From: an uncultured Phycisphaerae bacterium
GTDB lineage: Bacteria > Planctomycetota > Phycisphaerae > UBA1845 > PWPN01
Length of the DNA stretch: 64,000 nt
Assembly (NCBI GenBank): GCA_938005315.1
Contig: CALLOB010000005.1
Coordinates: forward strand, 19,413 to 83,412
Reading direction: 5' to 3'
Part shown: positions 24,341 through 56,783 of the stretch, piece by piece
How the letters are laid out: each line of letters opens with the position of its first letter
Numbering within the stretch: the first letter of the stretch is position 1
Notes under the pieces: model-generated
Told to the model about the DNA's origin: nothing
What the model saw: only the letters and a program-made list of their open reading frames with translations
Database searches by the model: none
Made by a program: the position numbers and the translations under genes

Positions 24341-24370
24341 TTGACCCCCGCGTCGGGGCATTCGTAGTAT
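24341..24370 (+). promoter_or_regulatory. Candidate sigma-70-like promoter for the small ORF/galE unit
   Basis: TTGACC-18 nt-TAGTAT lies ~70 nt upstream of ATG 24439. Confidence 0.35.
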
Positions 24371-24438
24371 ACGTGCCCGCGTGGGACGCCCGCCGGCGAG
24401 TATAAAGGCCGTCCGTGCGCGGGGCAAGCAGGGCCGCC

Positions 24439-32336: not shown

Positions 32337-32410
32337 GGGCGTTTAGCTCAGTTGGCTAGAGCGTACGGATCACACCCGTAAGGTCACTGGTTCGAGTCCA
32401 GTAACGCCCA
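32337..32410 (+). tRNA. tRNA-Val (anticodon CAC)
   Basis: I folded the cloverleaf by hand. Acceptor GGGCGTT/AACGCCC; D stem GCTC/GAGC; anticodon stem TACGG/CCGTA; loop AT-CAC-AC; variable loop AGGTC; T arm ACTGG-TTCGAGT-CCAGT; discriminator A. No CCA is encoded. 74 nt. Confidence 0.9.
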
Positions 32411-36549: not shown

Positions 36550-36800
36550 GGATCGCTCTCCTGGGAGCCCGGCGGCCCCGGGTTATCGGACATCCTCCCG
36601 GGTCGACCGGCTCAGCGCGTTCTATCGGACCTGCCCGGAGCCGGCTTGAGGTCGGCGGGAGGGTCCGCAAAAAAAACGGAGATAAGTCACCACCGCCCCA
36701 TCGGGTGCCGATAGTCCCATCACCGAGGGACCGGAGACCGGCGTCGGCCGGATCGGGACCCGGCCCTGCGGGCGGACACGGACGAGCCTTCGCGTCAGGG

Positions 36801-37631
36801 ATGACGACGATGCGATACACCTCCTTGAGACGCTGGCGGAATCCGGCGCTGACGGCGCTGTGCGGACTGGCCGCCGCCGCGTCGGCCGGGTGCGCCAACA
36901 AGTACGACGACATGAAGGTCTTCATGCGGGCCCACGAGAACGAGGTCGCGGGCACGATCTACCGCCTGGAGCCCCCGGACGTGATCGTGATCAACTCGCC
37001 GACCTGCCCGGAGGTGGACAACGAGGTCCAGCGCATCCGGGCCGACGGCAAGATCTCCCTGGACCTGCTGGGCGAGGTCTACGTGGCCGGCATGAGCCCG
37101 GCCGAGATCGCGGCCAAGCTCCAGGAGCAGCTCGCCCGCTACTACGAGAACCCCCGCGTCGATGTGCGCGTGGCCGCCTACGAGAGCAAGAGCGTCTACG
37201 TATTCGGGCAGGTCGCCGTGCCCGGACCGCATCCCTTCACCGGCCGCGACACGCTGATGGACGTGCTGGCGCGGGCCCGACCGACCTTCATCGCCTGGGG
37301 GGCGCAGGTCAAGGTCATCCGTCCCAGCGCCCGTCCCGACGAACGCCGCGAGATCACCGTGGACGTCGACAGGATCGTCGAGACCGGCGACATGCGCGAC
37401 AACCTGCTCCTGCAGGAGGGCGATATCGTCTACGTCCCGCCGACCCCGCTGGGATGGGTCGGGCTGCGGGTCAACGAGGTGCTGTTCCCGGTCTCGCCGA
37501 TGCTGTCGGCCTACCAGATGCCGTACCACTTCCGGGACTCGACCGACCACTACCGTTACGGGTCGTACTACCACTACAAGCATGACGATGACGACAACAA
37601 AGGGGGATACCGGAGGCTGCTGTTCAGGTAG
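36801..37631 (+). CDS. Polysaccharide export (OPX, Wza-like) lipoprotein
   Basis: The lipobox is AAAASAGCA. The Poly_export-like part has YRLEPPDVIVI...IRADGKISLDLLGEVYVAGMSPAEIAAKLQEQL. The SLBB-like part has VYVFGQVAVPGPHPF...LQEGDIVYVP. The C-terminal tail is unusually Tyr/His-rich. Confidence 0.8.
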   Translation: MTTMRYTSLRRWRNPALTALCGLAAAASAGCANKYDDMKVFMRAHENEVAGTIYRLEPPDVIVINSPTCPEVDNEVQRIRADGKISLDLLGEVYVAGMSPAEIAAKLQEQLARYYENPRVDVRVAAYESKSVYVFGQVAVPGPHPFTGRDTLMDVLARARPTFIAWGAQVKVIRPSARPDERREITVDVDRIVETGDMRDNLLLQEGDIVYVPPTPLGWVGLRVNEVLFPVSPMLSAYQMPYHFRDSTDHYRYGSYYHYKHDDDDNKGGYRRLLFR

Positions 37632-37667
37632 GAGGCGGAAGGTCGGAGGCGATCGTGGGATGACCGC

Positions 37668-39446
37668 ATGAGTATACAACCCTCTCCCATCATCCTCGGA
37701 CCGCGGGTCGGAGCCCGTGCCGACGACGCTGAGAACGGCGACCTCGGCCGGGTGCTCGCCCGGGTGATGGCCATTCTGAGCCATCGCCGCTGGCTGTTCG
37801 CCATCCCGCTGCTGGCGGGCATGGCCTTTAGCCTGAGCGTCGCTCTGTGCCTGCCCCGCCAGTACCAGGTGAAGGCGATCATCGAGCGGCGCGACGACGA
37901 GGTCCTCACCAAGCTGGTCAGCTACAACTCCCCGACGCGCTTCGAGACCGTGCGCCGCTCCATCCGCATCGACCTGGCGGGCTACGAGGCCATTCGTCGG
38001 GCCGCCGACGAGCTCGGCCTGCTGGCCGGGCTGCCCCGCGACGCCAACGGCGCCCTGACGCCGCACGGCGAGGCCATGTGCCACGAGTTCCTGAGCAACC
38101 TGGCGTCGCAGCTCACGGTCGGGACCATCGACCAGAGCACCTACCTGGACCTCATCGAGATCCGCTATGCCGGCGACGATCCCGAGATGGCCGTCCGGCT
38201 GATCCGGCAACTCAAGGACAACTACATCGCCCAGACCCAGAACTTCATCACCGAAACCATGCGCGAATCGGAGCAGTTCTTCGAGGACAAGGTCCGCACC
38301 TGCCGCGAACAGGTCGCACGCATGCAGGTCGAACTGCTCCAGATCGAGGCCGAACAGCCCGGCATCTCGCCCAATCGACCCTCCGAGCTCGAGGACCTGA
38401 TCCGGCTGGAGATCAAGTCCATCGAGGAGCTCACCGGACGCAAGGCCCAGGTGGCCATGGACCTCTCCGGGCTCGAGGAAACCCTCCGTCAGCTGGCGGC
38501 CCGCGAACAGGCCGGCGATGCCAGCGGCGGACCGATGCCGGAACTGCTGCCTCTGACCGCAACCCACCTGATCCCCAATCCGCAGCGCTCCGCCCTGATG
38601 GCGGAAATGAACAATGTGCGTTCGCAGATCGCCGACGCCAAGTCCATGCGTCAGATGAAGGACGCCCATCCGACGGTGCTCAACCTCCGCGAGAAGCTCC
38701 GCCAGCTCCAGTCGGAGTTCGAACGGCTTCCGGAGATGATCGAGGCCCAGCCGGCGCCGCAGCCGGCTTCCGCGGACCGCTCCGGCCTGCCGCCGATCGT
38801 GGCCGCCCGCCAGCGGGTCGATCGCGAAATCGAGATCCTCCGCCGCAACCTGGCCAGCCTGGAGGACGCCCTTGCCGGGCATGTCGCCCGCCGCGCCGAA
38901 CTGGAGGCCCAGCGGCAGACCCTGCCCGACCGCCGCAAGGCCTACATGCAGCGGCTCGCGGCCCTGCGCGACGCCCAGGCCGAGGCCGAGATGTGGAGCG
39001 GGCACCTGGCCGACGTCCGCCAGCGTCTGACCGCCGCCGACGAGAACCGCGGCGTCAGGTTCTCCACCGTCGAGGAGCCGCGCGTCCCGATGCGCCCGCT
39101 CTCCCCGAAACTGTCGAGCGTGCTGCTGGTCTCGGCCGGAGTCGGAATGGCTTTGGGTGTCGCCGCCGTCTTCCTCCGGGAAGTCATGGATACCACCCTC
39201 CGGGACCCGATGCGTGTCTCCCAGATCCTCGGGATCCCGGTGCTCGAGATCGTCGGACGCATCAGCGTGACCGGTCGACGGCGCTTCTTCTCGCGCCGAG
39301 GGCTGCTGCCGGCCGTCGCCTGGGTTCAGGGAGTGTTGGTTCTCGTCCTCGGCGGCCTGTTCTACCTGAGCGTCGAGCGGCCGCGGACCTATGACGAGAT
39401 CCGGGAAAAGGCCAGCGGTGTCGTCGCCTCCCTGCGGAGGGACTGA
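37668..39446 (+). CDS. Polysaccharide chain-length determinant (PCP, GumC/Wzz-like)
   Basis: The N-terminal TM segment is WLFAIPLLAGMAFSLSVALCL. A long coiled periplasmic region follows, then the C-terminal TM segment LSSVLLVSAGVGMALGVAAVFL. It sits between the OPX and kinase-like genes. Confidence 0.75.
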   Translation: MSIQPSPIILGPRVGARADDAENGDLGRVLARVMAILSHRRWLFAIPLLAGMAFSLSVALCLPRQYQVKAIIERRDDEVLTKLVSYNSPTRFETVRRSIRIDLAGYEAIRRAADELGLLAGLPRDANGALTPHGEAMCHEFLSNLASQLTVGTIDQSTYLDLIEIRYAGDDPEMAVRLIRQLKDNYIAQTQNFITETMRESEQFFEDKVRTCREQVARMQVELLQIEAEQPGISPNRPSELEDLIRLEIKSIEELTGRKAQVAMDLSGLEETLRQLAAREQAGDASGGPMPELLPLTATHLIPNPQRSALMAEMNNVRSQIADAKSMRQMKDAHPTVLNLREKLRQLQSEFERLPEMIEAQPAPQPASADRSGLPPIVAARQRVDREIEILRRNLASLEDALAGHVARRAELEAQRQTLPDRRKAYMQRLAALRDAQAEAEMWSGHLADVRQRLTAADENRGVRFSTVEEPRVPMRPLSPKLSSVLLVSAGVGMALGVAAVFLREVMDTTLRDPMRVSQILGIPVLEIVGRISVTGRRRFFSRRGLLPAVAWVQGVLVLVLGGLFYLSVERPRTYDEIREKASGVVASLRRD

Positions 39447-39491
39447 CCGCACGGCGGACGGGCCTGCCGTTCCCCCACGGAAGCGTGAGCT

Positions 39492-40424
39492 ATGGGTCGC
39501 ATCGCAGAAGCACTGAAACGCGCACAGGAGGAGAGACTTCGAAGGCGCGAGGCCGCCGGGGCCGCCCCGGGTGGTCCGCCGGCCGGCGCCGCGCGAGAGG
39601 GCGTCCCGGACGCCGGAGCCCGCGCCCCCGACGCCGCAGCCTCCACGACCGCGAGGTTCGGGGCGCTCTTCGACCTCCCGGCCATGCCCCGGCCCTTCAT
39701 CGTCAGCGCCTCCCCGCTGCCGCCGGAATCCGTCGATCGCCGGCTGGTCAGCTTCCACGAACCGTCCCTGGTCGTATCCGAGAAGTACCGGGCCATCCGC
39801 ACGCGGCTCCTGACCGCCAATCCCGACGGCGGCTCGCGCATCTACGCCGTGGCCTCCAGCCTCCACGGAGAGGGCCGGTCGGTCAGCGTCGGCAACCTGG
39901 GATTCTGCTTCGCCGAGCTGCGCCATCTTCGCGTGGCCATGGTGGACTGCGATCTGCGCCGCCGGGGCCTCAGCGATCTGTTCTCCGCCGCCGACAAGCC
40001 CGGCCTGGTGGATGTGATCCGGGGCGACAGACCGCTCTCGGAGGTCTGCCTGCCCGTCGTGCGCGGCAACCTGCATCTCATTCCCTCGGGAGACCCGGCC
40101 GGCGAGAGCCCCAGCGACCTGTTCGGCGGCTCCCGGCTGGCCTCGATCTTCCAGGAGATCCGCGAGCGCTTCCACTACGCGCTGGTGGACACGCCACCCA
40201 TGGACACCTTCGCGGACATCGGCCTGGTGGCTCCACTCTGCCACTCGACGCTGATCGTCATCCGCCTGAACAGCACCCCGGAAGGCGTCCTGCGACGCTG
40301 CGTGCGGATGCTGCAGGCCAACCGGATTCCCATCGCCGGATCTATCCTGGTCGGCGAGTGCCACAACGGCCTGGCCCGGCCCGAGTCCAGCGATTACTAC
40401 AACCCCCTTGCGGCGGAGGCATGA
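39492..40424 (+). CDS. BY-kinase-like (CpsD/CapB/EpsG-type) P-loop protein with Lys-to-Arg Walker A
   Basis: Walker A' is VAMVDCDLRRRGL and Walker B is YALVDTPPM. The Walker A position reads SSLHGEGRSVS where the family has GEGK[ST]. The C-terminus has only a DYY pair. Confidence 0.7.
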   Translation: MGRIAEALKRAQEERLRRREAAGAAPGGPPAGAAREGVPDAGARAPDAAASTTARFGALFDLPAMPRPFIVSASPLPPESVDRRLVSFHEPSLVVSEKYRAIRTRLLTANPDGGSRIYAVASSLHGEGRSVSVGNLGFCFAELRHLRVAMVDCDLRRRGLSDLFSAADKPGLVDVIRGDRPLSEVCLPVVRGNLHLIPSGDPAGESPSDLFGGSRLASIFQEIRERFHYALVDTPPMDTFADIGLVAPLCHSTLIVIRLNSTPEGVLRRCVRMLQANRIPIAGSILVGECHNGLARPESSDYYNPLAAEA

Positions 40425-41491
40425 ACATGCCCCCGACGGTCCGCGAACTCGACGCCGCCGCGCGGGGCCGATGGGACGAGTACGTCCGGGACCATCCGGA
40501 GGCGACCTTCTTCCACACGCCGGTCTGGCAGGATGCCGTGGAGACCGCCTTCGGGCACGCCCCCTGCGCCCTAGCCGCCTGGCGGGGCGAACGGCTGACC
40601 GGCGTGTTTCCGCTGTTCCGCGTCGAGAGCCGTCTGGCCGGGCGCATCCTGGTGAGCACCCCCTACGCGGTGTATGGCGGGACCCTGGCCGACGACGCCG
40701 AATGCCACCAGGCGCTGCTCGAGGCCGCCCTGGAACGCGCCCGGAGCATGCGCGTCCGGTGGATCGACATCCGCTCCGAAAAGGCGCATTGCCCGGACCT
40801 GCCGGTGGTGAATCGCTATGTCACCTTCCGCCGCGCGCTGCCGGAGGACCCGGCCGAGGTTCTCGCCCGGCTGCCCCGCAAAGCCCGGGCGGCCGCACGT
40901 CATGCCCGCGAGCGATTCGGGCTCCAGATCGTCTTCGGCGACGAGTGCCTGCCGACCGTCTGGAAACTCTACAGCCGCAGCATGCGGAGGCTGGGCTCGC
41001 TGAATTACCCGCAGGGATTTTTCGAAGCACTGATACGCAGCACGCCGGCCGGCCCGGCAGATCCCCAGGCGCCCGGCCATCTGGTCCAGCTCGTGCTCCA
41101 CCGTGACAGACCCATCGCCGGCCTGCTGAGCTTCACGTTTCGCGGGGTGATGATGCCCTACTTCGCCGGCTGCGACGAGCGTTTCGAGAGGTACCACCCC
41201 AACAACCTCATGTACCTGGCCGCGATGGAGGAGGCGGTGCGCAGGGGGTGCCGGGTGTTCGATTTCGGCCGCAGCCGCGTCGACAACGCCGGGGTCTGCG
41301 ACTTCAAACGCTTCCAGGGGTTCCAGCCTCGGCCGCTGGAGTACCAGTACGCGTCGCTGCGGGGATCTGAGGCGCCGAACCTGCATCCGGACAACCCCCG
41401 GCTGGCCGTCGCCCGCAGACTCTGGCCGCGGCTTCCGCTGGCGGTCACGCGGCCGCTGGGAGCCTGGCTGGCACGCTCGATTCCGGGCTGA
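40421..41491 (+). CDS. FemAB-related / GNAT-fold acyltransferase (PEP-CTERM-locus type)
   Basis: The ATG overlaps the previous stop (ATGA). Contains WDEYVRDHPEATFFHTPVWQDAV, STPYAVYGG, YSRSMRRLGSLNYPQGFF, MPYFAGCDERFERYHPNNLMY and FDFGRS. Confidence 0.7.
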   Translation: MNMPPTVRELDAAARGRWDEYVRDHPEATFFHTPVWQDAVETAFGHAPCALAAWRGERLTGVFPLFRVESRLAGRILVSTPYAVYGGTLADDAECHQALLEAALERARSMRVRWIDIRSEKAHCPDLPVVNRYVTFRRALPEDPAEVLARLPRKARAAARHARERFGLQIVFGDECLPTVWKLYSRSMRRLGSLNYPQGFFEALIRSTPAGPADPQAPGHLVQLVLHRDRPIAGLLSFTFRGVMMPYFAGCDERFERYHPNNLMYLAAMEEAVRRGCRVFDFGRSRVDNAGVCDFKRFQGFQPRPLEYQYASLRGSEAPNLHPDNPRLAVARRLWPRLPLAVTRPLGAWLARSIPG

Positions 41492-41554
41492 AGAGCCGGC
41501 CGACGCTGAAAAAACGCGGCGGAGCCTGTTTCGGCGGCCGCAACACGGACGAAC

Positions 41555-42859
41555 ATGAGACTGCTGTTTCTCATCCATCGCCTGCCCTGTCCGCCCGACC
41601 GCGGGGCCAAGCTGCGCGCCGCGGCGCTGCTGGACTGGCTGGCCCGCCGCCACGAACTGTGGTGCGCCGGCTTCCTGGATCCGCCCGCCGGCCGGGAGCA
41701 CGCTGCCCAGACCGCCGAGTCCCTGGCCCGCTGGCGCGGCCTCTGCCGGGAGGTCTCGGCCCTGCCGCTTCGCCCGGCGACGGCGACGTGCCGGGCCCTG
41801 GCCGGGCTGACCGCCGGCGGCACCGCCACCGAAAACTACTTCCGCTCGGCCCGCCTCGAACGGCAGATCGCCGACTGGGGTCGGCGGATCGGCTTCGACG
41901 CCGTGCTGGCCTTCTCCTCCAGCATGGCCCCGGCGGCGCTGAGCGTGCCGGCGCCGCGCCGGGTGCTGGTTATGGATGACCTGGACAGCCGCAAGTGGGC
42001 CCAGTCCGCGGCCCGCTCCGTCTGGCCCGCCCGTCAGCTTTATGCCCTGGAGGCCTCCCGGCTGGCCGACCGCGAACGCGCCTGGATCGCGGCCTTCGAC
42101 GCCACCGTGCTGGTCAGCCGACGCGAGGCGGAGGCCGTGACCGACCCCGCCCTGCGCGCCCGGGTGCACGTCATTCCGGCTGGAGCCGGAGCGGGCTTCG
42201 GGGATGCCCCGGCCGCCGACCCGCCGCCGCTGCCGGACGACGATGTCGTCGGCTTCGTCGGGGCCATGGACTACGAGCCCAACATCGACGCCGCCAGGTG
42301 GCTTGCCGGGTCGATCTGGCCGCTGATCCGAGCCCGCCGCCCCTCGGCCCGGCTGTGGATCGTGGGACGCTCTCCGACCCGCGCCGTGCGGCGGCTCGAC
42401 GGGCGCGACGGCATCCGTGTGACCGGCACCGTACCCGACGTCGGCCCCTGGCTGGCCGGCATGTGCGTGCATGTCGCTCCGCTGCGGCTGGCCCGCGGCG
42501 TCCAGATCAAGGTGCTCTCGGCCATGGCGGCCGCGCGGCCCTGCGTGGTGACGCCCGAGGTCGCCGAAGGCCTCGGCGCCGACCCCGGGCGCGACCTGCT
42601 GGTGGCCTCCGGCGCCCGGGACATCGCCGGGGCGGTGGTCGATCTGCTGGAGGACCGAATGCGGGCCCGAACAATCGGGCTGAACGGGCTGGCCTTTGTC
42701 CGGGAAGGCGGCGGCGCCTCCCGGGGCCTGCTGCGTCTGGAGGAACTGTTGGGAGGAAACCCCGGCGACACGGGACGGCCGGCGCACGAACGAACCGCGA
42801 ACCCGGCTGCGATCCGCCGGGTCCCCGCGTCCGGGAGGGTGGTCGCCCTGCCGGCATGA
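41555..42859 (+). CDS. GT4-family glycosyltransferase (resembles the PEP-CTERM/EpsH1-associated sugar transferase type)
   Basis: Starts MRLLFLIHRLPCPPDRGAKLRAAALLDWLARRHEL. Contains FVGAMDYEPNIDAARWL and APLRLARGVQIKVLSAMAAARPCV. Confidence 0.75.
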   Translation: MRLLFLIHRLPCPPDRGAKLRAAALLDWLARRHELWCAGFLDPPAGREHAAQTAESLARWRGLCREVSALPLRPATATCRALAGLTAGGTATENYFRSARLERQIADWGRRIGFDAVLAFSSSMAPAALSVPAPRRVLVMDDLDSRKWAQSAARSVWPARQLYALEASRLADRERAWIAAFDATVLVSRREAEAVTDPALRARVHVIPAGAGAGFGDAPAADPPPLPDDDVVGFVGAMDYEPNIDAARWLAGSIWPLIRARRPSARLWIVGRSPTRAVRRLDGRDGIRVTGTVPDVGPWLAGMCVHVAPLRLARGVQIKVLSAMAAARPCVVTPEVAEGLGADPGRDLLVASGARDIAGAVVDLLEDRMRARTIGLNGLAFVREGGGASRGLLRLEELLGGNPGDTGRPAHERTANPAAIRRVPASGRVVALPA

Positions 42860-42871
42860 GGCTGCATCATC

Positions 42872-44101
42872 ATGATCCGCGACAAGAACATCATCTGTTT
42901 CGCCAGCGGCTGGAACTACCATCCGACGAGCAAGCACCATGTGATGCGTCGGCTCTCGGAGCAGAACAACATCATCTGGGTCAACTGGCACGCCTCCCGG
43001 CGGCCGCGGCTGGACCGGACCGACCTGCGTCACATGGCCGGCCGGCTGTGGCAGATCCGCCAGGGCCCGCAGGCGGTCAGCGACTCGATCACCGTCGTGA
43101 CCCCCTGCCAGCTGCCCCTGCCGGGCTCCTCGGCCGCGCGGCGGTTCAACGCCCGGATGGTCAGCCGGGCGATCAGGGGCATCCTTCGCCGTCTGCCCCG
43201 CAGGCCGGTGCAGATCTGGAGCTTCGCCCCCGACGTGGCCGAGCTGGTCGGCAGGTTCGACGAGGAACTGGTCCTGTACTACTGCGTCGACGCGTTCGGC
43301 GAGTTTCCCGGCTACAACCGGCGGCTCATCGAGGACCGCGAGCGCGAGCTCATCGCCCGCAGCGACGTGATCATCACCACCTCGCCCCCGCTGTACGAGA
43401 ACAAGCGCCGGCTGCACTGGAACGTCCAGCACGTCGAGCACGGCGTGGATCACGGCCACCTCTCGCAGGCCCTGCGGCGGGATGTGCCGCCCCCGGCGGA
43501 CCTGGCGGCCCTGAGCCGCCCGATCTTCGGCTTCGTCGGCGTGATCGGCGACTGGGTGGACCTCGGGCTGATCGCCGGCCTGGCCCGCATGCGCCCGGAC
43601 GCCTCGGTGGTCATGATCGGCCCGACCCAGCAGCAGCGCGGGCCCTGCGCGGGCCTGCGCAACGTGCACTGGCTCGGGCCCAGGGACCATCGCCTGCTGC
43701 CGGACTATCTGCGATGGTTCGACGTCGGCCTGATCCCGTTCAAGGACGTGCCGCTGACCCAGGCCGCCAACCCGATCAAGCTGCACGAATATCTGGCCGC
43801 CGGGGTGCCCACGGTCAGCACTTCCCTGCCGGCCGTGCGGGCGATACCCAATTCGGTGTGGCTGGCCGACGACGCCCAGTCCATGGCCGACTGCTGCGAG
43901 GCCGCGCGGAAGTGCAACAGCCCCGACCAGCGCCGGGCCCGTTCGGAGTCCATGCTGCCGGAATCCTGGGCCCAGCGACTCGAACAGATCAGCCTGATCG
44001 TCGAGCGCACCCTCGCCCATCGGCCTTCCGCGGGCTTCGTGCCCGCCGCTGGCCGGACCCCCGCGCCCCCGGCGCCGGAGCTGGCCGTGACCGCGACGTG
44101 A
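42872..44101 (+). CDS. Glycosyltransferase (GT1/GT4 clan, TuaH-like)
   Basis: Starts MIRDKNIICFASGWNYHPTSKHHVMRRLSEQNNIIWVN. Contains FGFVGVIGDWVDL, GLIPFKDVPLTQAANPIKLHEYLAAGVP. Confidence 0.65.
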   Translation: MIRDKNIICFASGWNYHPTSKHHVMRRLSEQNNIIWVNWHASRRPRLDRTDLRHMAGRLWQIRQGPQAVSDSITVVTPCQLPLPGSSAARRFNARMVSRAIRGILRRLPRRPVQIWSFAPDVAELVGRFDEELVLYYCVDAFGEFPGYNRRLIEDRERELIARSDVIITTSPPLYENKRRLHWNVQHVEHGVDHGHLSQALRRDVPPPADLAALSRPIFGFVGVIGDWVDLGLIAGLARMRPDASVVMIGPTQQQRGPCAGLRNVHWLGPRDHRLLPDYLRWFDVGLIPFKDVPLTQAANPIKLHEYLAAGVPTVSTSLPAVRAIPNSVWLADDAQSMADCCEAARKCNSPDQRRARSESMLPESWAQRLEQISLIVERTLAHRPSAGFVPAAGRTPAPPAPELAVTAT

Positions 44102-44139
44102 GAAGCGAGGCGGTTGCGGATGTCCAGGGAGGATGGCCC

Positions 44140-44940: not shown

Positions 44941-44949
44941 CGCCGCCAG

Positions 44950-46059: not shown

Positions 46060-46264
46060 GGCCCGGCATCCGATAACCGCGCAGGCCCCATAATCGCCAC
46101 GAGGGCCGGGACGCCGCGGATTCTTTATGGGGCCGAACTCGCCCGGGCCCTTCCGCCTGCCGACATAACCATCAGCCGCGGACGGCTGGCGGACGGGCCG
46201 CCGCGCGCCGGTCGGCGTGCGCCCGCCGGTCGCCGCCGGCGCCGCGGCATGGAGTCTTCGAAAG

Positions 46265-48573: not shown

Positions 48574-49520
48574 GCCGCGACGCCGAGGTGTCGGTCATCA
48601 TCCCCTGCCGCGACGCCCGGGCAACGCTGGCGGACGCCATCCGCAGCGCGCTGAACCAGACCGTTCCCCCGCTGGAAGTCCTGGTCATCGACGATCGCAG
48701 CCGCGACGACAGCGCCGCGCTGGCCGCAGGCTTCGGCCCGCCGGTGCGCGTGCTGGCCGGCTCCGGGCGCGGGCCCGGGGCCGCACGCAGAATGGGGGTC
48801 GAGGCCGCACGCGGGCGCTACATCGCCTTCGTCGACGCCGACGACATCGTCGACGCCGCCAAGAACGAACGCCAGCTGGCCGTCCTGAGCGCCGCGCGGA
48901 CCGAAACCGTCGTGCATACCGGGGCCACGCTCCGATGGCTCGGCGACACCCGACCTCCCCGCTTGCGGTCCGGAGGCGAGCGCGCCTCCGGTCGATGCAC
49001 GCGTGCGATCTTCGAATCCAACCCCGTCTGCGGCGCTTCGGTGATGATGCGGCGCGAACTGATCCTGGATCTGGGCAACTTCCGCGCCGATCTGCCCATC
49101 TCCGAGGACTACGCGATGTGGCTGGCGGCCTCGACCCGCGCCGATTTCGTGTATCTGCCCGAGCCGCTGTACCACATCACCCGCCATCAGGGAAACATCA
49201 CCGCCCGCACCGCCCTGGGGGCCCTGTGCCACTGGAAGGCCCAGGAGGGTTTCCGCCAGGCGTTTCCGGATGCCTTCAACGCCCTGCCGGCCGAATCGAT
49301 CCGGCGGTACATGATCGAGCCGGTGCTGGCCGCGGCCCGCGAGGCCTGGTGGCGACGCGATGCGAGAGACGCACGGGCGCTGCTGACCCTCGCGGCCAGA
49401 CTGGCCCCGGAGGACGAGGAAATCCGGCGGCTCGCCCGGCGGGCCCGGCTGCCGATGGGCATCGTGCGGCTGTGGGATCGCCTCGCCGGACAGGCCATGC
49501 CGACCGCGGAGGTGCGTTGA
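48567..49520 (+). CDS. Family 2 glycosyltransferase
   Basis: Contains VSVIIPCRDARATL, VIDDRSRDDS and FVDADD. It overlaps the wzt stop by 7 nt. Confidence 0.8.
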   Translation: MLSRDAEVSVIIPCRDARATLADAIRSALNQTVPPLEVLVIDDRSRDDSAALAAGFGPPVRVLAGSGRGPGAARRMGVEAARGRYIAFVDADDIVDAAKNERQLAVLSAARTETVVHTGATLRWLGDTRPPRLRSGGERASGRCTRAIFESNPVCGASVMMRRELILDLGNFRADLPISEDYAMWLAASTRADFVYLPEPLYHITRHQGNITARTALGALCHWKAQEGFRQAFPDAFNALPAESIRRYMIEPVLAAAREAWWRRDARDARALLTLAARLAPEDEEIRRLARRARLPMGIVRLWDRLAGQAMPTAEVR

Positions 49521-50786
49521 ATGATCAACGACATCCCCCGCGAGACATCCCTGCATGTTGCCCTTGTCGTCGCCCATCCCGGCGGCATCGGCGGCCTGGA
49601 ACGCGCCTGCCGTTTCGTGACCGAAACCATGCTCTCGGCCGGCTGGGGGGTCACTGTGGCCCTGTCCGGGCAGGACATTTACAGCCCCGTCACGTGGGCG
49701 ACGCGAGGTCGGCTGAGGGTGGAAACGGTCGGCTGGGTCGATTCGACCATCGCGGGCGACCGTGAGTACCGGCTGGATCGCATCCGGCGGAGCCACCGCT
49801 GGTTCCGCCGGGTCCGGCCGGATGTGGCCCTGTTCGTCCAGTCATCCAACACGCCGTTCCGGGCCGCGGTCATCGCAGCCCGCCTGGCCGGCGTACCGGT
49901 GGTCGTGACCCACCGGACCATGCCGTGGCCGGTCGCGGATCACGGCTCGCGCCGCCACATGTTCGGCCTGGTGCCCGGCCTGGGCCTGTACCGGCGGAAG
50001 GCCGTTCTCAAAACGCGTCTGACGGCCATGCAGGCCCGCGCCATCGTCTACAACAGCCATGCCGTCCGCGAGGGCTACGAGCGCATCTACGGTTATCCGC
50101 GTGCCCGGGGGCGGGTGATTCCCAACGCCGTCGCCGCACCTGTCGGCCCGGAGCCTCGCCGGCCGGCCGGGCCGCCGGTGATCGGCTTCGTGGGCCGCAT
50201 CGGCCGCGAAAAACGCCTGGACGTGCTGCTGCACGCCTTCGCGCGCCTCCGTTCGAGTCCCGCGCCCCGTCTGGTGCTGGTCGGCGAAGGTCCTGAACGA
50301 CCCGCTCTCGACAGACTGGCGTCCGAACTCGGCCTCGTCGGCCGCGTCACCTGGACCGGGCCGACCGACGACGTCCGGCCGGCCTACGCGGGCATGGATG
50401 TGGTCGTGTTGTGCTCGCCTCGCGAATCCTCGAGCAACATGGTCCTGGAGGCCATGGCCGCCGGACGCGCGGTCGTGGTCACCACCGCCGGCGGACTTCC
50501 CGAACTGGTCGATTACGGACGCTGCGGCCTGCTGGTGCCGCCGCTGGACATCGATGCCCTGGCCGGGACGCTCGCGCGGCTGCTGGCCGACCAGGCGCTT
50601 CGCACTGAACTTGGCCGCCGGGCCGCTGAACTGGCCCGAACGCGACACGACCCTCAGGACATCCGCAGGCAGTGGCTGGACACGCTGCGGTCCGCCACCC
50701 GGGCGAAACGCGCTGCAAAGCATGCATCGGCTGCAAACAAGGCCAGGGAGTATCGGTTTGAGCCCCGGACTGTTCATGGTGTTTGA
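49521..50786 (+). CDS. GT4-family glycosyltransferase
   Basis: The ATG follows the previous TGA directly. Contains GGIGGLERA, FVGRIGREKRLDVLL and SPRESSSNMVLEAMAAGRAVV. Confidence 0.8.
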   Translation: MINDIPRETSLHVALVVAHPGGIGGLERACRFVTETMLSAGWGVTVALSGQDIYSPVTWATRGRLRVETVGWVDSTIAGDREYRLDRIRRSHRWFRRVRPDVALFVQSSNTPFRAAVIAARLAGVPVVVTHRTMPWPVADHGSRRHMFGLVPGLGLYRRKAVLKTRLTAMQARAIVYNSHAVREGYERIYGYPRARGRVIPNAVAAPVGPEPRRPAGPPVIGFVGRIGREKRLDVLLHAFARLRSSPAPRLVLVGEGPERPALDRLASELGLVGRVTWTGPTDDVRPAYAGMDVVVLCSPRESSSNMVLEAMAAGRAVVVTTAGGLPELVDYGRCGLLVPPLDIDALAGTLARLLADQALRTELGRRAAELARTRHDPQDIRRQWLDTLRSATRAKRAAKHASAANKAREYRFEPRTVHGV

Positions 50787-52710
50787 TTCCCGGCCCGGCG
50801 AAGCCTGCCTGGCCGTCCAGCGGATGCTGGCACGAACCGGTCTGCCGCCCGATCGGCGGATCGCCGCCGCCAGGGGCCGCGACTGGGCCTTGGCCGCGGC
50901 GGCCCCCGCAGCCGATGAGCCGACCTGCGGGGCGGGCGTGGCGACATCGGAAGGCCACGTGCTGGCCTGGACCGGCGATCTGCTGGTGCCCGACGACTGG
51001 CGCGACGGGCAGCACGGCCGGCACGAACCCCGCATGATCGGGACGGCGGTGCTGCGCCGCCTCGCCCGCCGCGGGCTCGACTGCCTGGCCGAAGTGGACG
51101 GCTCGTTCTGCGGCGCCTGGTACGACCCCCGCGCCGACCGTTGGCAGATCTTCAACGACAAGCTCGGCCTGATTCCGGTGTTCTGGACGAGCCAGCGCGG
51201 CCGCGACGTGATCGGACCGACTCCCGACGCCGTGCGGATCGGCGCTCAGGCACCGCCGGCGCTGTGGGACGAGGGCCTGACCGACCTGCTGAGGACCGGC
51301 AACATGGTCGACGATCGCACGCTGATCCGTGGCGTGCGCTGGCTGATCGGCGGGCACGTTCTGACGCGGACACCGCAGGGCCTGCAGCCCCGCTGTTACT
51401 GGGAGTTCCGCCATCTTCCGGTAGCCGAGACCGACGTCGGGCGTCTGGTCGACAGCGCCGCAGAGGTCCTCGAACGGTGCGTCCGCCGCCAGGCCGACAC
51501 CCGCTCGCCGCTGCTGCTGGGACTCAGCGGCGGCATGGACTCGCGCTGCATCCTGGCGGCCGCACACGCGACCGGACGGGTGCCGTTCTGCTTCACCACC
51601 GGCACGGCCGTCAGCGAGGACGTGCGCTTCGCCCCGCGCGTGGCCCGCGCCGCCGGCGCCGCCCACCAGTGGCTGCCGTATGAGCCGCGCGAGGCGGTCG
51701 AGCCGCTGATGGGACTGATCCGCCGCACGCAGGGCCTGCACAGTGCACGCCACCTGGCCGCGGCGGCGATGATTCCCCGGTGGCTGGAGGCCCGCAGGCC
51801 GTGCGTGCTGCTCGAGGGCTATCTGATGGGCGCACTGGCCGGCGTGCATCTGCCCGACGCCCGGGACATGCTGCCCGACCGGCCGCCCCACCAGTGGGCC
51901 TGGGCCTGCGCCCGCCTCCACGGCGGCGGCCGAATCGAGGCGGTGGACGACCTGCTCCGGCCGGACCTGGCGCGCAGCAGTTTCGAACGCTGGGCCGAGC
52001 GGATCGACCGGCGTTTTCGACAGGCCCAGGTCGATGACCCCGTCCGAAAGGCCGAATTCGTCGTGGTCGCCGGCCGCAGCGGCCGCAACGACGTGATCGG
52101 CACGTGGATGCTCACGCCGCACGCCGTGCTCCGCTGCCCCGGCAGCGACCGGGCGATGCTCGACTGGTATGCGGCCGCGCCGCCGGACCTGCTGCGCGGC
52201 AAGCGCTTCCACATGGAACTGATCCGCCGCCGCTATCCGCGTTTCGCGCGCGCCCAGCGCGCCAGCTACGACGGCCTGCCCCTGACCACCGATGCCTGGA
52301 GCCGCAACTGGTGCTGGCAGAAGGAAAAGCTCTTCCGCGCGTGGGCACGACTGCGCCACCCCTGGACCCGCGAGGTCGGCCTGGGCGCGGCGGGCATGCT
52401 GATGCTCACCCTGCGGGCCTGGAAGGCCTCGGGGGCGCTGGATATGTTGCTGGAACCGGACGCGCGGGTTCTCGAATGCCTCCGCCGGGACAGCCTGAAA
52501 CGTCTGTGGCACCAGGCCGACGTCGACAAGGACGCCCTGGCGCTGCTGATGGGCGTCGCCACCGCCGAGATCGCCCTGCGCGACCTGGAGGATGCCCGGC
52601 CGGCGACGCCGCCGACCGTGGTGGGCGAAGTCCGCTTCCGGTCGATGGAAACCCGCGGAAAGGCCGCCAACGCCGCGACCGCTGAAGATGTCGTGGGGGT
52701 GCACCCGTGA
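50776..52710 (+). CDS. Asparagine-synthetase-B-like protein lacking the N-terminal Cys nucleophile
   Basis: It starts MVFDSRPG, with no Cys2. It keeps VDGSFCGAWYD...NDKLGLIPVFW and the PP-loop LGLSGGMDSR. This is the 3' part of ORF 50398..52710. Confidence 0.65.
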   Translation: MVFDSRPGEACLAVQRMLARTGLPPDRRIAAARGRDWALAAAAPAADEPTCGAGVATSEGHVLAWTGDLLVPDDWRDGQHGRHEPRMIGTAVLRRLARRGLDCLAEVDGSFCGAWYDPRADRWQIFNDKLGLIPVFWTSQRGRDVIGPTPDAVRIGAQAPPALWDEGLTDLLRTGNMVDDRTLIRGVRWLIGGHVLTRTPQGLQPRCYWEFRHLPVAETDVGRLVDSAAEVLERCVRRQADTRSPLLLGLSGGMDSRCILAAAHATGRVPFCFTTGTAVSEDVRFAPRVARAAGAAHQWLPYEPREAVEPLMGLIRRTQGLHSARHLAAAAMIPRWLEARRPCVLLEGYLMGALAGVHLPDARDMLPDRPPHQWAWACARLHGGGRIEAVDDLLRPDLARSSFERWAERIDRRFRQAQVDDPVRKAEFVVVAGRSGRNDVIGTWMLTPHAVLRCPGSDRAMLDWYAAAPPDLLRGKRFHMELIRRRYPRFARAQRASYDGLPLTTDAWSRNWCWQKEKLFRAWARLRHPWTREVGLGAAGMLMLTLRAWKASGALDMLLEPDARVLECLRRDSLKRLWHQADVDKDALALLMGVATAEIALRDLEDARPATPPTVVGEVRFRSMETRGKAANAATAEDVVGVHP

Positions 52711-53678
52711 AGACCCTGCTGGCCGGACCCTACGTCGGTGAGATCGGCTGGGAGCTGATGTCCTGGCAGGCTCACGTCCGGCGGGTGTTCCGGGAGGAAG
52801 GCTTCGACCGCCTGGTGGTCCTCGGTGCCGCCGGTCGTGAGGCCTTCTACGAAGACATGGCTGCCGACTACCGCGTCGTCGATCTGAGCGGCCTGCCCGG
52901 CGAACCCTGCGAGGACCGCCGCGTCGATGCCCACCGCCGCCCCCTGCCGGTGCCGCAGATCCGGGCCTGCATCGAACCGATGCTGCAGAGCGCGGTCCGG
53001 ACGCTCCGGGACGCGGGTGCGGCCGTCACGACCCTCCTGCCGGCCATGGAGGGGCGACTCCTGCCCTGCGACGCGGCTCACCAGAGGTTCATTCAGTTCC
53101 GGCGCGTCCCGCGCGACCCGATGGATGCCCCCTGGGTCGTCCTGGTCATGCGGCAGCGGGCCTTCAATGCCGACCAGAACTGGCCGACGGCCTGCTGGGA
53201 GGAACTGTACGATCTGCTCATCGACCGGGGCATCAACGTCAGCAGCTATCCCAACGAGGCCGCCTCGGCCATCGAGGCGCTGTCGGCCTGCGACCTGGCC
53301 GTCGGGCACTCCACCGGCGGGCTTCACCTGGCGGCCCTGTGCGGCTGCCCGCGCCTGGTATGGTCCTGGGATGACTCGGTGCGCGACTTCCCCTGGGGCA
53401 TGACCCAGCGGCAGCGCTACCAGACGCTCTGGAACCCGCTGGGCAGCCCGGTGATCTTTCACGGCCAGGGCGAGTTGCCTTCACCGGCCATGGTGGCCGC
53501 ATGGGTCCAGCAGGCGCTGGAGCGCATCGGCCGTCGGACCGGGCGGGCGTGGCACCGCCGGGCGTTCCGTGCCGCCTGGCGGGTCCGGAACGGCCTCTAC
53601 GATAGCGTCGTCCGCCGGCCCTCGTTCAGGCGGTGGCCCTGGCGACTGCAGGAGTTCGTGCGTTACGGACTGATCTGA
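52707..53678 (+). CDS. Hypothetical protein, possible GT9 (heptosyltransferase)-like GT-B glycosyltransferase
   Basis: The GTG start overlaps the previous stop (GTGA). The N-terminus is MKTLLAGPYVGEIGWELMSW. The segment AVGHSTGGLHLAALCGCPRLVWS resembles the GT9 C-terminal motif (nDSGxmHLAAAlGtPxv). The assignment is weak. Confidence 0.4.
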   Translation: MKTLLAGPYVGEIGWELMSWQAHVRRVFREEGFDRLVVLGAAGREAFYEDMAADYRVVDLSGLPGEPCEDRRVDAHRRPLPVPQIRACIEPMLQSAVRTLRDAGAAVTTLLPAMEGRLLPCDAAHQRFIQFRRVPRDPMDAPWVVLVMRQRAFNADQNWPTACWEELYDLLIDRGINVSSYPNEAASAIEALSACDLAVGHSTGGLHLAALCGCPRLVWSWDDSVRDFPWGMTQRQRYQTLWNPLGSPVIFHGQGELPSPAMVAAWVQQALERIGRRTGRAWHRRAFRAAWRVRNGLYDSVVRRPSFRRWPWRLQEFVRYGLI

Positions 53679-53679
53679 C

Positions 53680-54735
53680 ATGGCGGAAGCCGGATTGACA
53701 GGCTGCTGTTCGCCCCGGATCGCCGGCGGCCAGCGTTCATCCGCCCGGCGGTCGCCGGCCTGCGCATGCTGCGGCGCGCACGACAGCCGCCCGTTGTGGC
53801 CCCGGCACGCCGGGACCGGTCGCCTGACACTTCCGCTGCACCGTTGCCGGAGATGCGGCCTGATCTTCGCCTGGCCGCAACCGGACGCTCAGGAGATCCG
53901 CGGCTTCTACGACGCCGACTACTACGTCTTCCACGAGCCGCCCGCCAAACGCTGGGGGCGGGCCGCGCAGCTTTACATCGAATACCTTCTGCCGCTGGAG
54001 TCGCGCGGCGGCCGCCGCCTTCTGGAGGTCGGTTGTGCTCAGGGCGAACTGCTGGTTCTGGCCCGGCGGCGCGGGTGGAACGTCGTCGGTATAGAACTCT
54101 CTTCCCCGGCGGCCGAATATGCCCGCCGGCAATGGGATTTGAACGTCCGCACCGGCACGATCGAGCAACACGCGGCCGACGTGCCCCCCTGCGACCTGGC
54201 TGTCGCGACCGATGTCATCGAGCATGTGCCGGAGCCGCGACGTTTTCTTGGGAGCATGGCTTCAGCCCTCGGGCCCGGCGGACTCGTACTGCTGGAAACA
54301 CCGAACTGGGACAGCCCATGGCGAAGGCTTGGCGGCCGACACTGGATCGGCCTGAATCCCTTCCACATCTTCCTGTACGGCACCCGCAGCCTGACCACGC
54401 TGGCCCGGCAGTGCGGCCTGGAAAACGTCGAGATGCGCAGCGTCACCCATTTCGCCCATGCGCTGTGGGGCCATCGGCCCGAACTGGACTGTCTGGTGCG
54501 GCGACTGCCCGAGAGCCTCGCATGGCGGGTGCGGGCGGGTCTGGATCGCCTGACTCCCCCCTCCCGGTCGCGGGCTTTGTGCCTGGACCCGCCGGACTCC
54601 TGCGACTCCGCTCTGGCACGGATCGAGGCCGCCGCCCGAAACGGCGCGGCTCCGAAGAAACAGGGCGTCTTCCATCCCTGGCGAACCTCCCTGGGCGACA
54701 ATCTGGCCCTGCTGGCGCGGCGCCAAGACCGATAA
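53680..54735 (+). CDS. Class I SAM-dependent methyltransferase with N-terminal Cys-rich (zinc-ribbon-like) segment
   Basis: The Cys-rich part is CACCGAHD...HRCRRCGLIF. The methyltransferase part has RLLEVGCAQGELLVLARRRGWNVVGIELS, DLAVATDVIEHVPEP and LGPGGLVLLETP. Confidence 0.7.
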   Translation: MAEAGLTGCCSPRIAGGQRSSARRSPACACCGAHDSRPLWPRHAGTGRLTLPLHRCRRCGLIFAWPQPDAQEIRGFYDADYYVFHEPPAKRWGRAAQLYIEYLLPLESRGGRRLLEVGCAQGELLVLARRRGWNVVGIELSSPAAEYARRQWDLNVRTGTIEQHAADVPPCDLAVATDVIEHVPEPRRFLGSMASALGPGGLVLLETPNWDSPWRRLGGRHWIGLNPFHIFLYGTRSLTTLARQCGLENVEMRSVTHFAHALWGHRPELDCLVRRLPESLAWRVRAGLDRLTPPSRSRALCLDPPDSCDSALARIEAAARNGAAPKKQGVFHPWRTSLGDNLALLARRQDR

Positions 54736-54799
54736 TATCGCCCGCCGGGCCCACGCAAACGCCGATCAGGCCTATTGGACGCGGTTGCGGCCGATATTC

Positions 54800-54852
54800 C
54801 TCAACTTTTCTGCGGACCGACCGATATCCCAATCGAGAGCGGTTATCGGAGT
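54800..54852 (+). promoter_or_regulatory. Three-block conserved intergenic element, copy A
   Basis: The element is CTCAACTT-N10-CGACCGATATCC-N12-GTTATCGG-AGT. The same blocks at the same spacing recur at 56561-56614. It ends 41 nt upstream of ATG 54893. Confidence 0.5.
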
Positions 54853-54892
54853 TCCCGCTCGCGGGCGCTGCCCGATACCCGAGGTCGATGCG

Positions 54893-56404
54893 ATGCCGGC
54901 CGGCTCAACGATGATCAAGGGAGCCCGCCCGGCGGCGGACGACCGGGCGTATCGGGAAGCCTTGGAACGCTGGCGGCGATGGCTCGATCACGAGCCCGAG
55001 CTGCCGGGAGCCGATCGCCGCGGGGCCGCCCCGCCGAGGCGCGTCCTGCTGATCAGCTACATGTTCCCGCCCGCGGGCGGAGCCACCCTGCAGCGGCCGG
55101 CCAGGCTCGCCGCGTACCTGCCGACCTGCGGGTGGTCGGTCGAAGTCGTCACCGCGAACCATGAGCGGTTCGCCTGGTACGACGCCACGATGGAGGACAG
55201 CGCCGGCAGCGGCGTTCACCGCGTCAGCGGCTGGGAACCCGCGTGCCTGGCAGGTCGCATCGCTTCGTTGTTCCGGTTGCATACGGGAACGGATGCCCGT
55301 CACCATGCACGAGTTGAGGTCGGTCGACAGGGACGTCGACCGACCTCACGCTTTGAAGACGCCCTCTACTGGCGCCTGACCGCCCTGGCCGAGCGGCTCG
55401 GCGCAGGCGACGGCAGCAGCCTCTGGCAAGGTCCGGCTTTTCGCGCCGCTCTCCGGCTTCACCGCGCATGCCCGTTCGACGCCGTGGTCTCCACCGGCCC
55501 GCCGCACTTCGTGCACCGCATCGCCGCACGCCTGACCGCCGTCGCCGGCCTGCCCTGGCTGGCCGATCTGCGCGATCCGCTGATCAGCGACTTCGACCGG
55601 GGATGCGTCGGTCATCAGCCGGATTCCGCGTCTGCGAAACTGGAACGCATGATCCTGCGGCAGGCCCGTATCGTCGTGACCACCTGTCCGGCGCTGCGCG
55701 AGGATCTGCTGAGCCGCTACCCCGACAGGTCCCGCGACAGCATCCGGTGTGTGACCAACGGCTTCGATCGTCGTGACCTGCATCCGCTTCTGAGGGATCC
55801 CGCGTTCACGTCGCCCAGGACAGACCACTGCATTCTGGCGTGCGCGGGATCGCTATACGGCCGCCGCGAGCTGTCGCGCATCGTCGAGCCGCTGGCCGGC
55901 GTGCTTTCGGCCCGGCCCGACTGGGCGGCAAAGGTCCGACTCGTGGTGGCCGGCACGATCGACCGCGAACAGCGCCGATTCTGGCAGCAGTGCGCTCCTG
56001 AATGGCTGACCTTCGCCGGATATCTCGATCACCGGCAGGCACTGGCACTGGCAGCCGGTGCGGCCTGCAATCTCGTCATCGTCCCGGACTGCGCGCACGG
56101 CCGGATGAGCATACCGGGCAAGACCTTCGAGCTGCTGGCCCTGCCGCCGCACATCCTGGGCATGGTTCCGCCGGAAAGCGACACCGCCCGCATCCTGCGG
56201 CGGGCCGGCAACGCTACCGTGGTGCCGTTCGAGGATGCCGGGGCGGTCCGGGCCGCCTTCGAGCGCATCATCGCCGCGCACCTGGCGGGACGGCTCATTC
56301 CGGACCGCAACTGGCAGGCCGTCGAGCCCTACGACCGCCGTCGCATCGCCCGGCGGTTCGCCGCCTGCCTTTCTGCGGCAGTCCAGTGCCACTGCGGAAG
56401 CTGA
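54893..56404 (+). CDS. Glycosyltransferase (GT4-like)
   Basis: Starts MPAGSTMIKG. Contains RVLLISYMFPPAGGATLQRPARLAAYLPTCGWSVEVVT and GKTFELLALPPHILG. The start is ATG 54893 after GAGGtcgatgcg. Confidence 0.6.
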   Translation: MPAGSTMIKGARPAADDRAYREALERWRRWLDHEPELPGADRRGAAPPRRVLLISYMFPPAGGATLQRPARLAAYLPTCGWSVEVVTANHERFAWYDATMEDSAGSGVHRVSGWEPACLAGRIASLFRLHTGTDARHHARVEVGRQGRRPTSRFEDALYWRLTALAERLGAGDGSSLWQGPAFRAALRLHRACPFDAVVSTGPPHFVHRIAARLTAVAGLPWLADLRDPLISDFDRGCVGHQPDSASAKLERMILRQARIVVTTCPALREDLLSRYPDRSRDSIRCVTNGFDRRDLHPLLRDPAFTSPRTDHCILACAGSLYGRRELSRIVEPLAGVLSARPDWAAKVRLVVAGTIDREQRRFWQQCAPEWLTFAGYLDHRQALALAAGAACNLVIVPDCAHGRMSIPGKTFELLALPPHILGMVPPESDTARILRRAGNATVVPFEDAGAVRAAFERIIAAHLAGRLIPDRNWQAVEPYDRRRIARRFAACLSAAVQCHCGS

Positions 56405-56560
56405 GTCCGCCGTGTATCCCTTGCCGGAAGAACCGCCGGCGGCCGCAGGTCGGCAGGCGTGGACACGTCCGATAATCAGGCGGTTCTCAGGCCTCCGGCG
56501 GGCTGGGCATTTCCCTGGCTGGCGGGATCTGCCGGGGGCGGCCGGAATGACCGGGGGGAC

Positions 56561-56614
56561 CTCAACTTATCCTGCCAGCGACCGATATCCACCATAGCGA
56601 CTGTTATCGGGAGT
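56561..56614 (+). promoter_or_regulatory. Three-block conserved intergenic element, copy B
   Basis: The element is CTCAACTT-N10-CGACCGATATCC-N12-GTTATCGG-GAGT. It lies 170 nt upstream of ATG 56784, inside a 379-nt gap. Confidence 0.5.
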
Positions 56615-56783
56615 GCTTGTGCGGCAATGGGTTAGCGCGCAAGCCACCCGCCCGGAAGGATCCGAACGAACGTTCGCCAGGGATGGCGTCATGCCCCCGC
56701 CGATTCGCGCGGCGCAAGCACGCCCGGACTTCCCGGCGACAAGCAGCCCGGCTGTTGCCCGGGGATTGCGTGAAAGGCCCGCA

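Follow-up and report, generated by a model that had tools for sequence, protein, structure and literature searches.

The window analysed here is a 64,000-nt stretch of DNA from an uncultured Phycisphaerae bacterium (contig CALLOB010000005.1), with a G+C content of ~70% and with proteins whose nearest relatives are found in metagenome-assembled genomes (MAGs) named Phycisphaerae or Planctomycetota. From 32.9 to 64 kb it carries an exopolysaccharide locus of the XrtA/PEP-CTERM type, and the noncoding gaps of this locus repeatedly hold a short motif, CCGATAA or CCGATAT (CCGATAA/T below), which is the subject of this report. The motif matches the -10 box recognized by flagellar-type (sigma-28/FliA-family) sigma factors, and a factor of this type probably switches on the exopolysaccharide cluster.

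The locus begins on the minus strand with the gene for an XrtA/PEP-CTERM-associated ATPase (32881-36549, 1222 aa), in which a TIGR03015-like ATPase domain of ~265 aa is joined to ~950 aa of weakly SMC/Rad50-like coiled coil; orthologues range from 827 to 1387 aa. Divergent from the ATPase gene runs a stretch led by OPX (outer-membrane polysaccharide export) and followed by genes for a chain-length determinant, a tyrosine-kinase-like ATPase and a FemAB-family protein (TIGR03019, above cut-off), and then by glycosyltransferases, an ABC-2 permease and a deacetylase. After the deacetylase come a methyltransferase, Wzt, further glycosyltransferases and an AsnB-like protein, next a GT4-like gene (54893-56404), and finally glycosyltransferases, a Wzy_C protein, a methyltransferase and an XrtA-type amidotransferase. 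With gene calls from a codon-usage model trained on the window itself, the only sizeable noncoding stretches of the locus are four gaps, at 36550-36800 (gap 1), 46060-46264 (gap 2), 54736-54892 (gap 3) and 56405-56783 (gap 4).

The initial annotation of this DNA had reported the motif as an AT-rich 8-mer, TTATCGGA, at 1451(-), 36583(+), 46069(-), 54843(+) and 56468(-). A pattern count with a shuffle control returned exactly these five matches against an expectation of 0.37, in line with the earlier estimate of less than one chance occurrence, and none of 100 shuffles reached five. The 10-mer GGTTATCGGA is the same at 36581, 46069(-) and 54841, as had been described, and every listed variant was present as reported (36622, 36708, 54729, which shares the TAA stop, 54791, 54821, 56582 and 56603/4). 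The degenerate pattern [A/C/T]TATCGG (HTATCGG) occurs 14 times in the window, 11 of them in noncoding sequence, which makes up 12% of the window. Ten of these 11 sites fall in gaps 1-4 (~1 kb together) and a single one in the other ~6.7 kb of noncoding DNA, a split with a binomial estimate of ~1e-8 that bears out the claim that the motif sits in the noncoding gaps of the locus. Counted as heptamers, CCGATAA (7) and CCGATAT (5) total 12 against 4.34 expected, with 10 inside the locus gaps, and the base preceding the heptamer is G, T or A. The recurrence of the motif is real and far beyond chance.

The initial annotation had read the motif on what proves to be the nonfunctional strand. Read on the opposite strand, the motif is CCGATAA (the complement of TTATCGG) or CCGATAT, and this functional form, CCGATAA/T, is the published -10 consensus GCCGATAA of sigma-28 (FliA/SigD/WhiG), whose -10 boxes take the form GCCGATAA or GCCGATAT. 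The complete sigma-28 consensus has been given as TAAAGTTT-N11-GCCGATAA (PMC7286023), the open complex on Pseudomonas fliC has a -35 TCTAAAG and a -10 GCCGATAA at -15..-8 (PMC12784957), and an extended form reads TNAAG-N14-GCCGATA, with N15 in Chlamydia hctB (PMC3333780). Three sites in the window add a TNAAG-like -35 box at canonical spacing, each aimed at a downstream gene. Since they read TCAAG-N15-tCCGATAG (once) and TCAAC-N14-aCCGATAT (twice), these elements fit the consensus spacing and -10 box, and more loosely its -35 box: the spacer is N15 at the ATPase promoter and N14 in gaps 3 and 4, where the sigma-28 norm is 14-15 nt. At the -35 position, TCAAG before the ATPase gene fits TNAAG, TCAAC in gaps 3 and 4 is a near-fit, and the canonical TAAA is absent. 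The strict pattern TNAAG-N15-17-CCGATA has one match in the window, the ATPase promoter, against 0.03 expected. The initial annotation had left two readings open, an operator and an alternative class of promoter. The sigma-28-type -10, the -35 partner and the orientation favour the promoter, although the copies that lack a -35 box and the conserved inverted copies may yet be operators.

We gathered orthologous loci through homologues of the FemAB-family protein, together with a one-genome-per-species scan (80 loci, all from Phycisphaerae or Planctomycetota MAGs); 98 loci were fetched overall, and the set used for statistics comprised 83 non-redundant loci, or 1.35 Mb. In this set CCGATAA occurs at 0.538 per kb of noncoding and 0.049 per kb of coding sequence, an 11-fold difference, and TCCGATAA has a noncoding to coding ratio of 19; control 7-mers of like composition were mostly 1-4 fold denser in noncoding DNA, with the rare CCTATAA at 13.8. 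The initial annotation had named equal frequency in coding sequence as a refutation, and lack of conservation in orthologous loci as a point against the motif; on the second count, over 30 lineages keep the motif although their spacers have otherwise diverged. Noncoding motif density is 1.87 per kb within the exopolysaccharide loci and 0.52 per kb beyond the ATPase gene, the latter close to a chance estimate of ~0.3 per kb.

The placement of the sites is promoter-like. The 209 noncoding CCGATA[AGT] sites lie at a median distance of 89 nt from the start codon, and of those in tandem gaps 70 face the gene that follows and 25 face away from it. In 43 sites a [CT]CAA sequence precedes CCGATA by 16-18 nt, over a background of ~1 per offset; it does so in none of the 34 sites that face away from the gene that follows or are found in convergent gaps. 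All classifiable sites with both a -35 and a -10 box aim with the gene or occupy divergent gaps, and the orientation bias is also seen where no -35 box is present (54 sites facing the gene that follows, 25 facing away). The pattern T.AA[CG]-N15-16-CCGAT[AG] has 24 noncoding matches, where each of three controls with a wrong spacer or reversed order gives 4.

Individual promoters could be followed across lineages by their boxes. Strict TNAAG-N15-17-CCGATA occurs in 35 of the 98 fetched loci, nearly always before the ATPase gene, and on the ATPase strand the form (C/G/A)TCAAG-N16-17-CCGATA(G/A) extends over ~28 lineages, down to ~52% ATPase identity, with the boxes and the spacer length (N16-17) kept and the spacer sequence unrelated. 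On the OPX side, relatives have (T/C)(G/A)AAC-N15-CCGATGA at the aligned position, and a distant clade has TTCAGTC-N14-CCGATAA; the back-to-back ATPase and OPX promoters keep a conserved spacing around an A-tract. The promoter of the GT4-like gene, CCTCAAC-N15-CCGATATC, is retained in L094 (80% aa identity), L097 (52%) and L098 (55%) with differing spacer sequences, and the gap-4 counterpart, again CCTCAAC-N15-CCGATATC, precedes the GT1 gene in L096. Within the window, the gap-3 and gap-4 promoters are 77% identical (repeat family D2). The genes found downstream of sites across the loci are ATPase (26), OPX (14), FemAB (12) and AMP-binding ligase (~12) genes, glycosyltransferases and an ABC transporter.

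Some of these relatives carry further sites of note. In the distant clade (L047, L066, L036, L038, L044, L053, L065, L073, L054 and L077; ~8.3-8.5 kb), a gene of ~465 aa for an AMP-binding, acyl-CoA-ligase-like protein adjoins FemAB upstream and carries AACCAAT-N17/18-CCGATAA 50-95 nt before it, with CCAA as the -35 variant. In L006 and L007, a 68-aa YjfB_motility (PF14070) gene at 13693-13930 directly follows the exopolysaccharide core genes. Just in front of it stands cAAAG-N15-GCCGATAC, whose last base is a mere 8 nt from the ATG, and this suggests a leaderless transcript of sigma-28 type. In B. subtilis, yjfB is a member of the SigD regulon.

The gaps were also scanned for other kinds of signal. 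None of the four gaps has a match to a sigma-70-type promoter, as the initial annotation had maintained. It had also placed a sigma-70 promoter before a small ORF, and such a promoter, the near-consensus TTGACC-N17-TAGTAT, is indeed found at 24341-24373, upstream of a 101-aa ORF at 24415-24720 (no Pfam match), so ordinary promoters here look conventional. A weighted scan for sigma-54 (TGGCAC-N5-TTGC, GG-N10-GC) gave nothing convincing in the gaps; the candidate TGGGGC-N5-TCGC in gap 2 is weak and is not conserved in L012 or L030. Only the tRNA at 32337-32410 reached the gathering threshold in Rfam, no consensus structure was supported for a leader RNA in gap 2, and two divergent promoters account better than RNA pairing for the complementarity of site B and the gap-1 TCCGAT box. 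A link to PEP-CTERM protein genes was likewise set aside, the motif being upstream of only 1/3 such genes in the loci. The ops 8-mer of E. coli, GGCGGTAG, is found seven times in the window against 2.05 expected (8581, 9067, 28343, 36959, 44205, 47017 and 62841), all on the minus strand and all within coding sequence, never in the gaps; its excess is probably an effect of codon use or composition.

Candidate promoters, further copies of the motif and associated features in the window.
Feature	Positions	Strand	Description
Orphan TTCAG-N15-CCGATAA	1432..1458	+	aims rightward into ~500 nt of noncoding sequence, away from the gene starting at 1411
Second -10-like copy, GTCCGATAACC	36583..36589	-	no -35; 32 nt past the first -10, 33 nt before the ATPase ATG
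ATPase promoter	36622..36651	-	-35 CCTCAAG 36651..36645, 16-nt spacer, -10 CCGATAG 36628..36622
A-tract (A7-8) between the back-to-back ATPase/OPX promoters	36669..36676		~17-18 nt from CTTGAG in 15 lineages
Candidate OPX-operon promoter (gene 36801 onward)	36687..36714	+	TCACC-N16-CCGATAG, -10 at 36708-36714; -35 weak in the window
Lone CCGATAA	46070..46076	+	no -35; 10 nt past the deacetylase stop, 188 nt before ATG 46265 of the methyltransferase/Wzt operon
CCGATAA overlapping the stop codon (TAA) of the methyltransferase gene before it	54729..54735	+	no -35; conserved in L094
CCGATAT just before the gap-3 -35 box	54791..54797	+	no -35 of its own; not conserved in L094
GT4-like gene promoter	54799..54827	+	-35 CCTCAAC 54799-54805, N15, -10 CCGATAT 54821-54827
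Inverted copy (TTATCGG on the + strand)	54843..54849	-	15 nt past the gap-3 -10, at ~+9 to +15
CCGATAC variant	54872..54878	+	14 nt before ATG 54893; CCGATAT in L094; in an arm of inverted repeat I4
Lone CCGATAA	56469..56475	+	no -35; 64 nt past the stop of the GT4-like gene
GT1/Wzy/AsnB operon promoter (ATG 56784, possibly 56691)	56560..56588	+	CCTCAAC 56560-56566, N15, CCGATAT 56582-56588
Inverted copy (TTATCGG on the + strand)	56604..56610	-	15 nt past the gap-4 -10; absent from the L096 orthologue

In gap 1, the copy at 36583 is kept in 16 of 17 close-clade lineages, with varying spacing and non-conserved flanks. Possible roles for this copy are an additional promoter closer to the gene and a pause site dependent on sigma. 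The A-tract between the two divergent promoters may be a UP-like element that they share; L006 and L007 have a 25-nt insertion at the A-tract position.

In gap 2, the lone CCGATAA at 46070 lies inside a conserved block in L001 and has counterparts 156-190 nt before the ABC-transporter operon in L012 and L030. Between it and the methyltransferase/Wzt operon stand two further conserved blocks, TTTATGGGGC and (T/G)CCGACA(A/T)AA (46115-46124 and 46150-46159), which keep a constant spacing of 25-26 nt in four lineages (the window, L001, L012 and L030). The CCGACAA of the second block might be a degenerate sigma-28 -10.

At the end of gap 3, a 21-nt inverted repeat (54867-54887 / 54940-54960, 81% complementary) flanks the ribosome-binding site and the ATG (54893) of the GT4-like gene, and its arms hold CCGATAC and GTATCGG. 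This repeat may form a hairpin that masks translation.

Outside the locus, the initial annotation had linked the copy at 1451 to the gene for a secreted protein that starts at 1411. The site is probably unconnected to that gene, because the orientation in which the motif is functional elsewhere faces away from it. The ~500 nt at 1460-1950 downstream of this orphan site hold no convincing gene and could contain an unannotated small RNA or small ORF, and the next plus-strand gene has a sigma-70-like promoter of its own, TTGAAT-N17-TAAAGT, near 1955. The products of 830-1411(-) and ~2335-4671(+) are predicted secreted proteins, both ending in dockerin/EF-hand-like D-x-D-x-D...F..FQRCL segments, and L036 encodes a Peptidase_C1-dockerin protein with a CCGATAG 294 nt upstream of its gene.

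Given the consensus match, a -35 partner at the expected distance, the bias in orientation, the enrichment, the deep conservation and gaps free of a competing sigma-70 signal, we consider it likely that the motif is the -10 element of promoters of the sigma-28 family (FliA/SigD/WhiG-type, group 3) that drive every transcription unit of the locus. RNA polymerase carrying a sigma-28-family factor would then start transcription ~7-8 nt downstream of each element and so drive the divergent ATPase gene, the OPX/PCP/FemAB operon, the methyltransferase/Wzt operon, the GT4-like gene and the GT/Wzy/AsnB operon, and the whole locus would form one regulon that is on when the sigma factor is active. The copies that lack a -35 box would most simply be weaker or activator-dependent promoters of the same class, or else extra sigma-binding or pause sites. 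This model presupposes a sigma-28 homologue encoded in this genome, its binding to the sites and transcription starts at the predicted positions. Sigma-28 is the most widespread alternative sigma factor, with conserved specificity and with non-flagellar paralogues in WhiG and in the sigma-28 of Chlamydia (PMC4598750), and fliA is reported from Planctomycetota (PMC11958385). This class of promoter is textbook knowledge; no prior report of its use for an entire XrtA/PEP-CTERM-type exopolysaccharide locus, as proposed here across the Phycisphaerae, turned up in the literature searched.

Several observations weigh against assigning the locus to a sigma-28 factor. No sigma-factor gene was found among the genes of the window, nor in the related loci (1.5 Mb), where the negatives for a linked sigma gene, obtained with FliA, flagellin and RpoD queries, are weak. 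The targets are polysaccharide genes rather than flagellar or chemotaxis genes, and the YjfB_motility gene described above is the only motility gene among them. Roughly 74% of noncoding CCGATA[AGT] sites have no recognizable -35 box, including the window copies at 36583(-), 46070, 54729, 54791, 56469 and 1452, and the -35 boxes that are present read TCAAG or TCAAC and not TAAAG. Copies occur in both orientations, with 3-5 clustered in a gap, and in four lineages (the window, L094, L097 and L098) an inverted copy lies 15-19 nt past the -10 of the GT4-like gene. A plain promoter model does not predict such an inverted copy downstream of the promoter, which is possibly an operator or a convergent antisense promoter.

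The clustering and the inverted copies are what an operator would explain. Under that alternative, a dedicated transcription factor binds the motif as an operator or half-site, in either orientation and in clusters, and the likeness to sigma-28 is either coincidental or reflects a repressor that competes for the site. The 3-5 copies per gap in both orientations are consistent with this, as are the roughly three quarters of sites that lack a -35 box, the lone copies 150-190 nt before the transporter operon in four lineages with other conserved blocks intervening, and the inverted pairs CCGATAT-N15-TTATCGG, which in gaps 3 and 4 have the predicted start at their centre and whose inverted copy is kept at variable spacing in L094, L097 and L098. 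Such pairs, spaced by 15-19 nt, are confined to these two promoters and the orthologous ones; elsewhere the copies are direct or single. An operator bound in either orientation would nevertheless not account for the strong orientation bias, which persists in the sites without a -35 box, nor for a -35 partner that stands at fixed spacing only on the gene-proximal strand, and over 7-8 nt the motif is identical to an established sigma -10 consensus. The loci have no conserved regulator gene as a neighbour, and a DNA hairpin at the inverted pairs is unremarkable both thermodynamically and statistically (z-scores of -0.9 and +0.15, not significant). We regard an operator as an unlikely explanation of the motif as a whole.

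Less probable still is that the sites are promoters of an extracytoplasmic function (ECF) sigma factor, a family abundant in Planctomycetota, instead of a sigma-28-family factor. ECF promoters have a -35 GGAAC or AAC and a short -10 of the CGT(C) type, and the AAC-N16-CG layout of TCAAC-N16-CGATAT, and of GTCGAAC-N16-CGATGA in relatives, recalls this pattern. The -10 here is long, however, matching GCCGATAA or its T-ending form over 7-8 nt rather than a short CGTC-type box, and AAC shows no peak at -35 offsets among the noncoding sites across the loci. The -35 TCAAG fits TNAAG (PMC3333780), and no ECF sigma/anti-sigma gene pair adjoins any locus. An ECF factor was dropped as the first reading once the 7-8 nt match to GCCGATAA and the TNAAG box, both backed by the literature, had been recognized.

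Chance or composition is excluded: noncoding DNA in this 70% G+C genome is richer in A+T, and several control 7-mers ending in TAA are enriched 2-4 fold (the rare CCTATAA 13.8-fold), but neither this nor a dispersed repeat, of which the 31-nt gap-3/gap-4 promoter pair is the sole longer example, accounts for five exact matches against 0.37 expected, the concentration of ten of 11 noncoding sites in 1 kb of locus gaps, the 11-fold enrichment where most controls reach 1-4 fold, and the conservation in more than 30 lineages with diverged spacers.

A sigma-28-type assignment invites comparison with systems in which the regulation is known. The sigma-28 promoters of flagellar class III-IV genes in Proteobacteria and Firmicutes share the -10 CCGATAA/CCGATAT, a spacing of 14-15 nt, the orientation toward the downstream gene and, at the three two-box sites, a -35 that resembles TNAAG (TCAAG, TCAAC). 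They differ in their targets, which are flagellin, chemotaxis and motor genes and not, as here, an exopolysaccharide locus of 30 kb. Here, moreover, the -35 has C instead of A at its second position, CCGATAA often follows a T or A where a G would be expected, and extra -10-like copies, some of them inverted, accompany the promoters. FliA-family factors have been redeployed to developmental, non-motility regulons in Streptomyces (WhiG) and Chlamydia (sigma-28, acting on the late genes hctB and tsp; PMC4598750, PMC3333780). The Chlamydiae share the PVC superphylum, and the TNAAG-N15-GCC spacing of hctB resembles that of the ATPase promoter here (PMC3333780). The WhiG and Chlamydia regulons serve sporulation or elementary-body differentiation, whereas here the output would be polysaccharide synthesis, under a sigma factor that is presumed from its promoters.

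Control of exopolysaccharide genes by an alternative sigma factor has a parallel in Zoogloea and Aquincola, where RpoN (sigma-54) with PrsK/PrsR governs the exosortase/PEP-CTERM exopolysaccharide genes for floc formation (PMC9850573, PMC1569441). That factor is of another sigma class, and no GG-N10-GC sigma-54 promoter is present in the gaps here; the sigma-54 dependence of proteobacterial PEP-CTERM/exopolysaccharide systems (PMC9850573) contrasts with this locus. Matrix promoters of Pseudomonas putida, PlapA and PbcsD, are FliA-independent (PMC5026340), again in contrast with our reading of the Phycisphaerae locus. The enterobacterial JUMPstart/ops element, which recruits RfaH, is likewise a short conserved element that heads long polysaccharide operons. 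Here, no NusG-paralogue gene was seen in the loci and the ops 8-mer is absent from the gaps, and the presence of a -35 partner argues for a promoter and not a leader element.

More tentatively, a FliA/WhiG-family factor, possibly a dedicated paralogue, could be the master regulator of the whole locus and hence of matrix production, with the extra -10-like copies adding a layer of control; we hold this to be possible rather than probable. The swimmer-to-sessile (cell-cycle) programme would in that case govern when matrix or holdfast is made. The extra direct and inverted copies would serve as pause or decoy sites for the sigma factor, or else as convergent antisense promoters by which adjacent operons are insulated from each other.

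The Phycisphaerae are mostly uncultured and are abundant in sludge, sediments and soils, and their promoters and regulons are almost unknown. For the main exopolysaccharide locus of these bacteria, the sites described here yield a specific promoter pattern that is conserved, approximately TNAAS-N14-16-nCCGATAA, and that can be used to find further regulon members in MAGs (e.g. as TNAAS-N14-16-NCCGATAA), and they lead to the prediction that one flagellar-type alternative sigma factor controls the whole locus. If this is true, matrix production in these bacteria would be tied to a developmental or motility programme.

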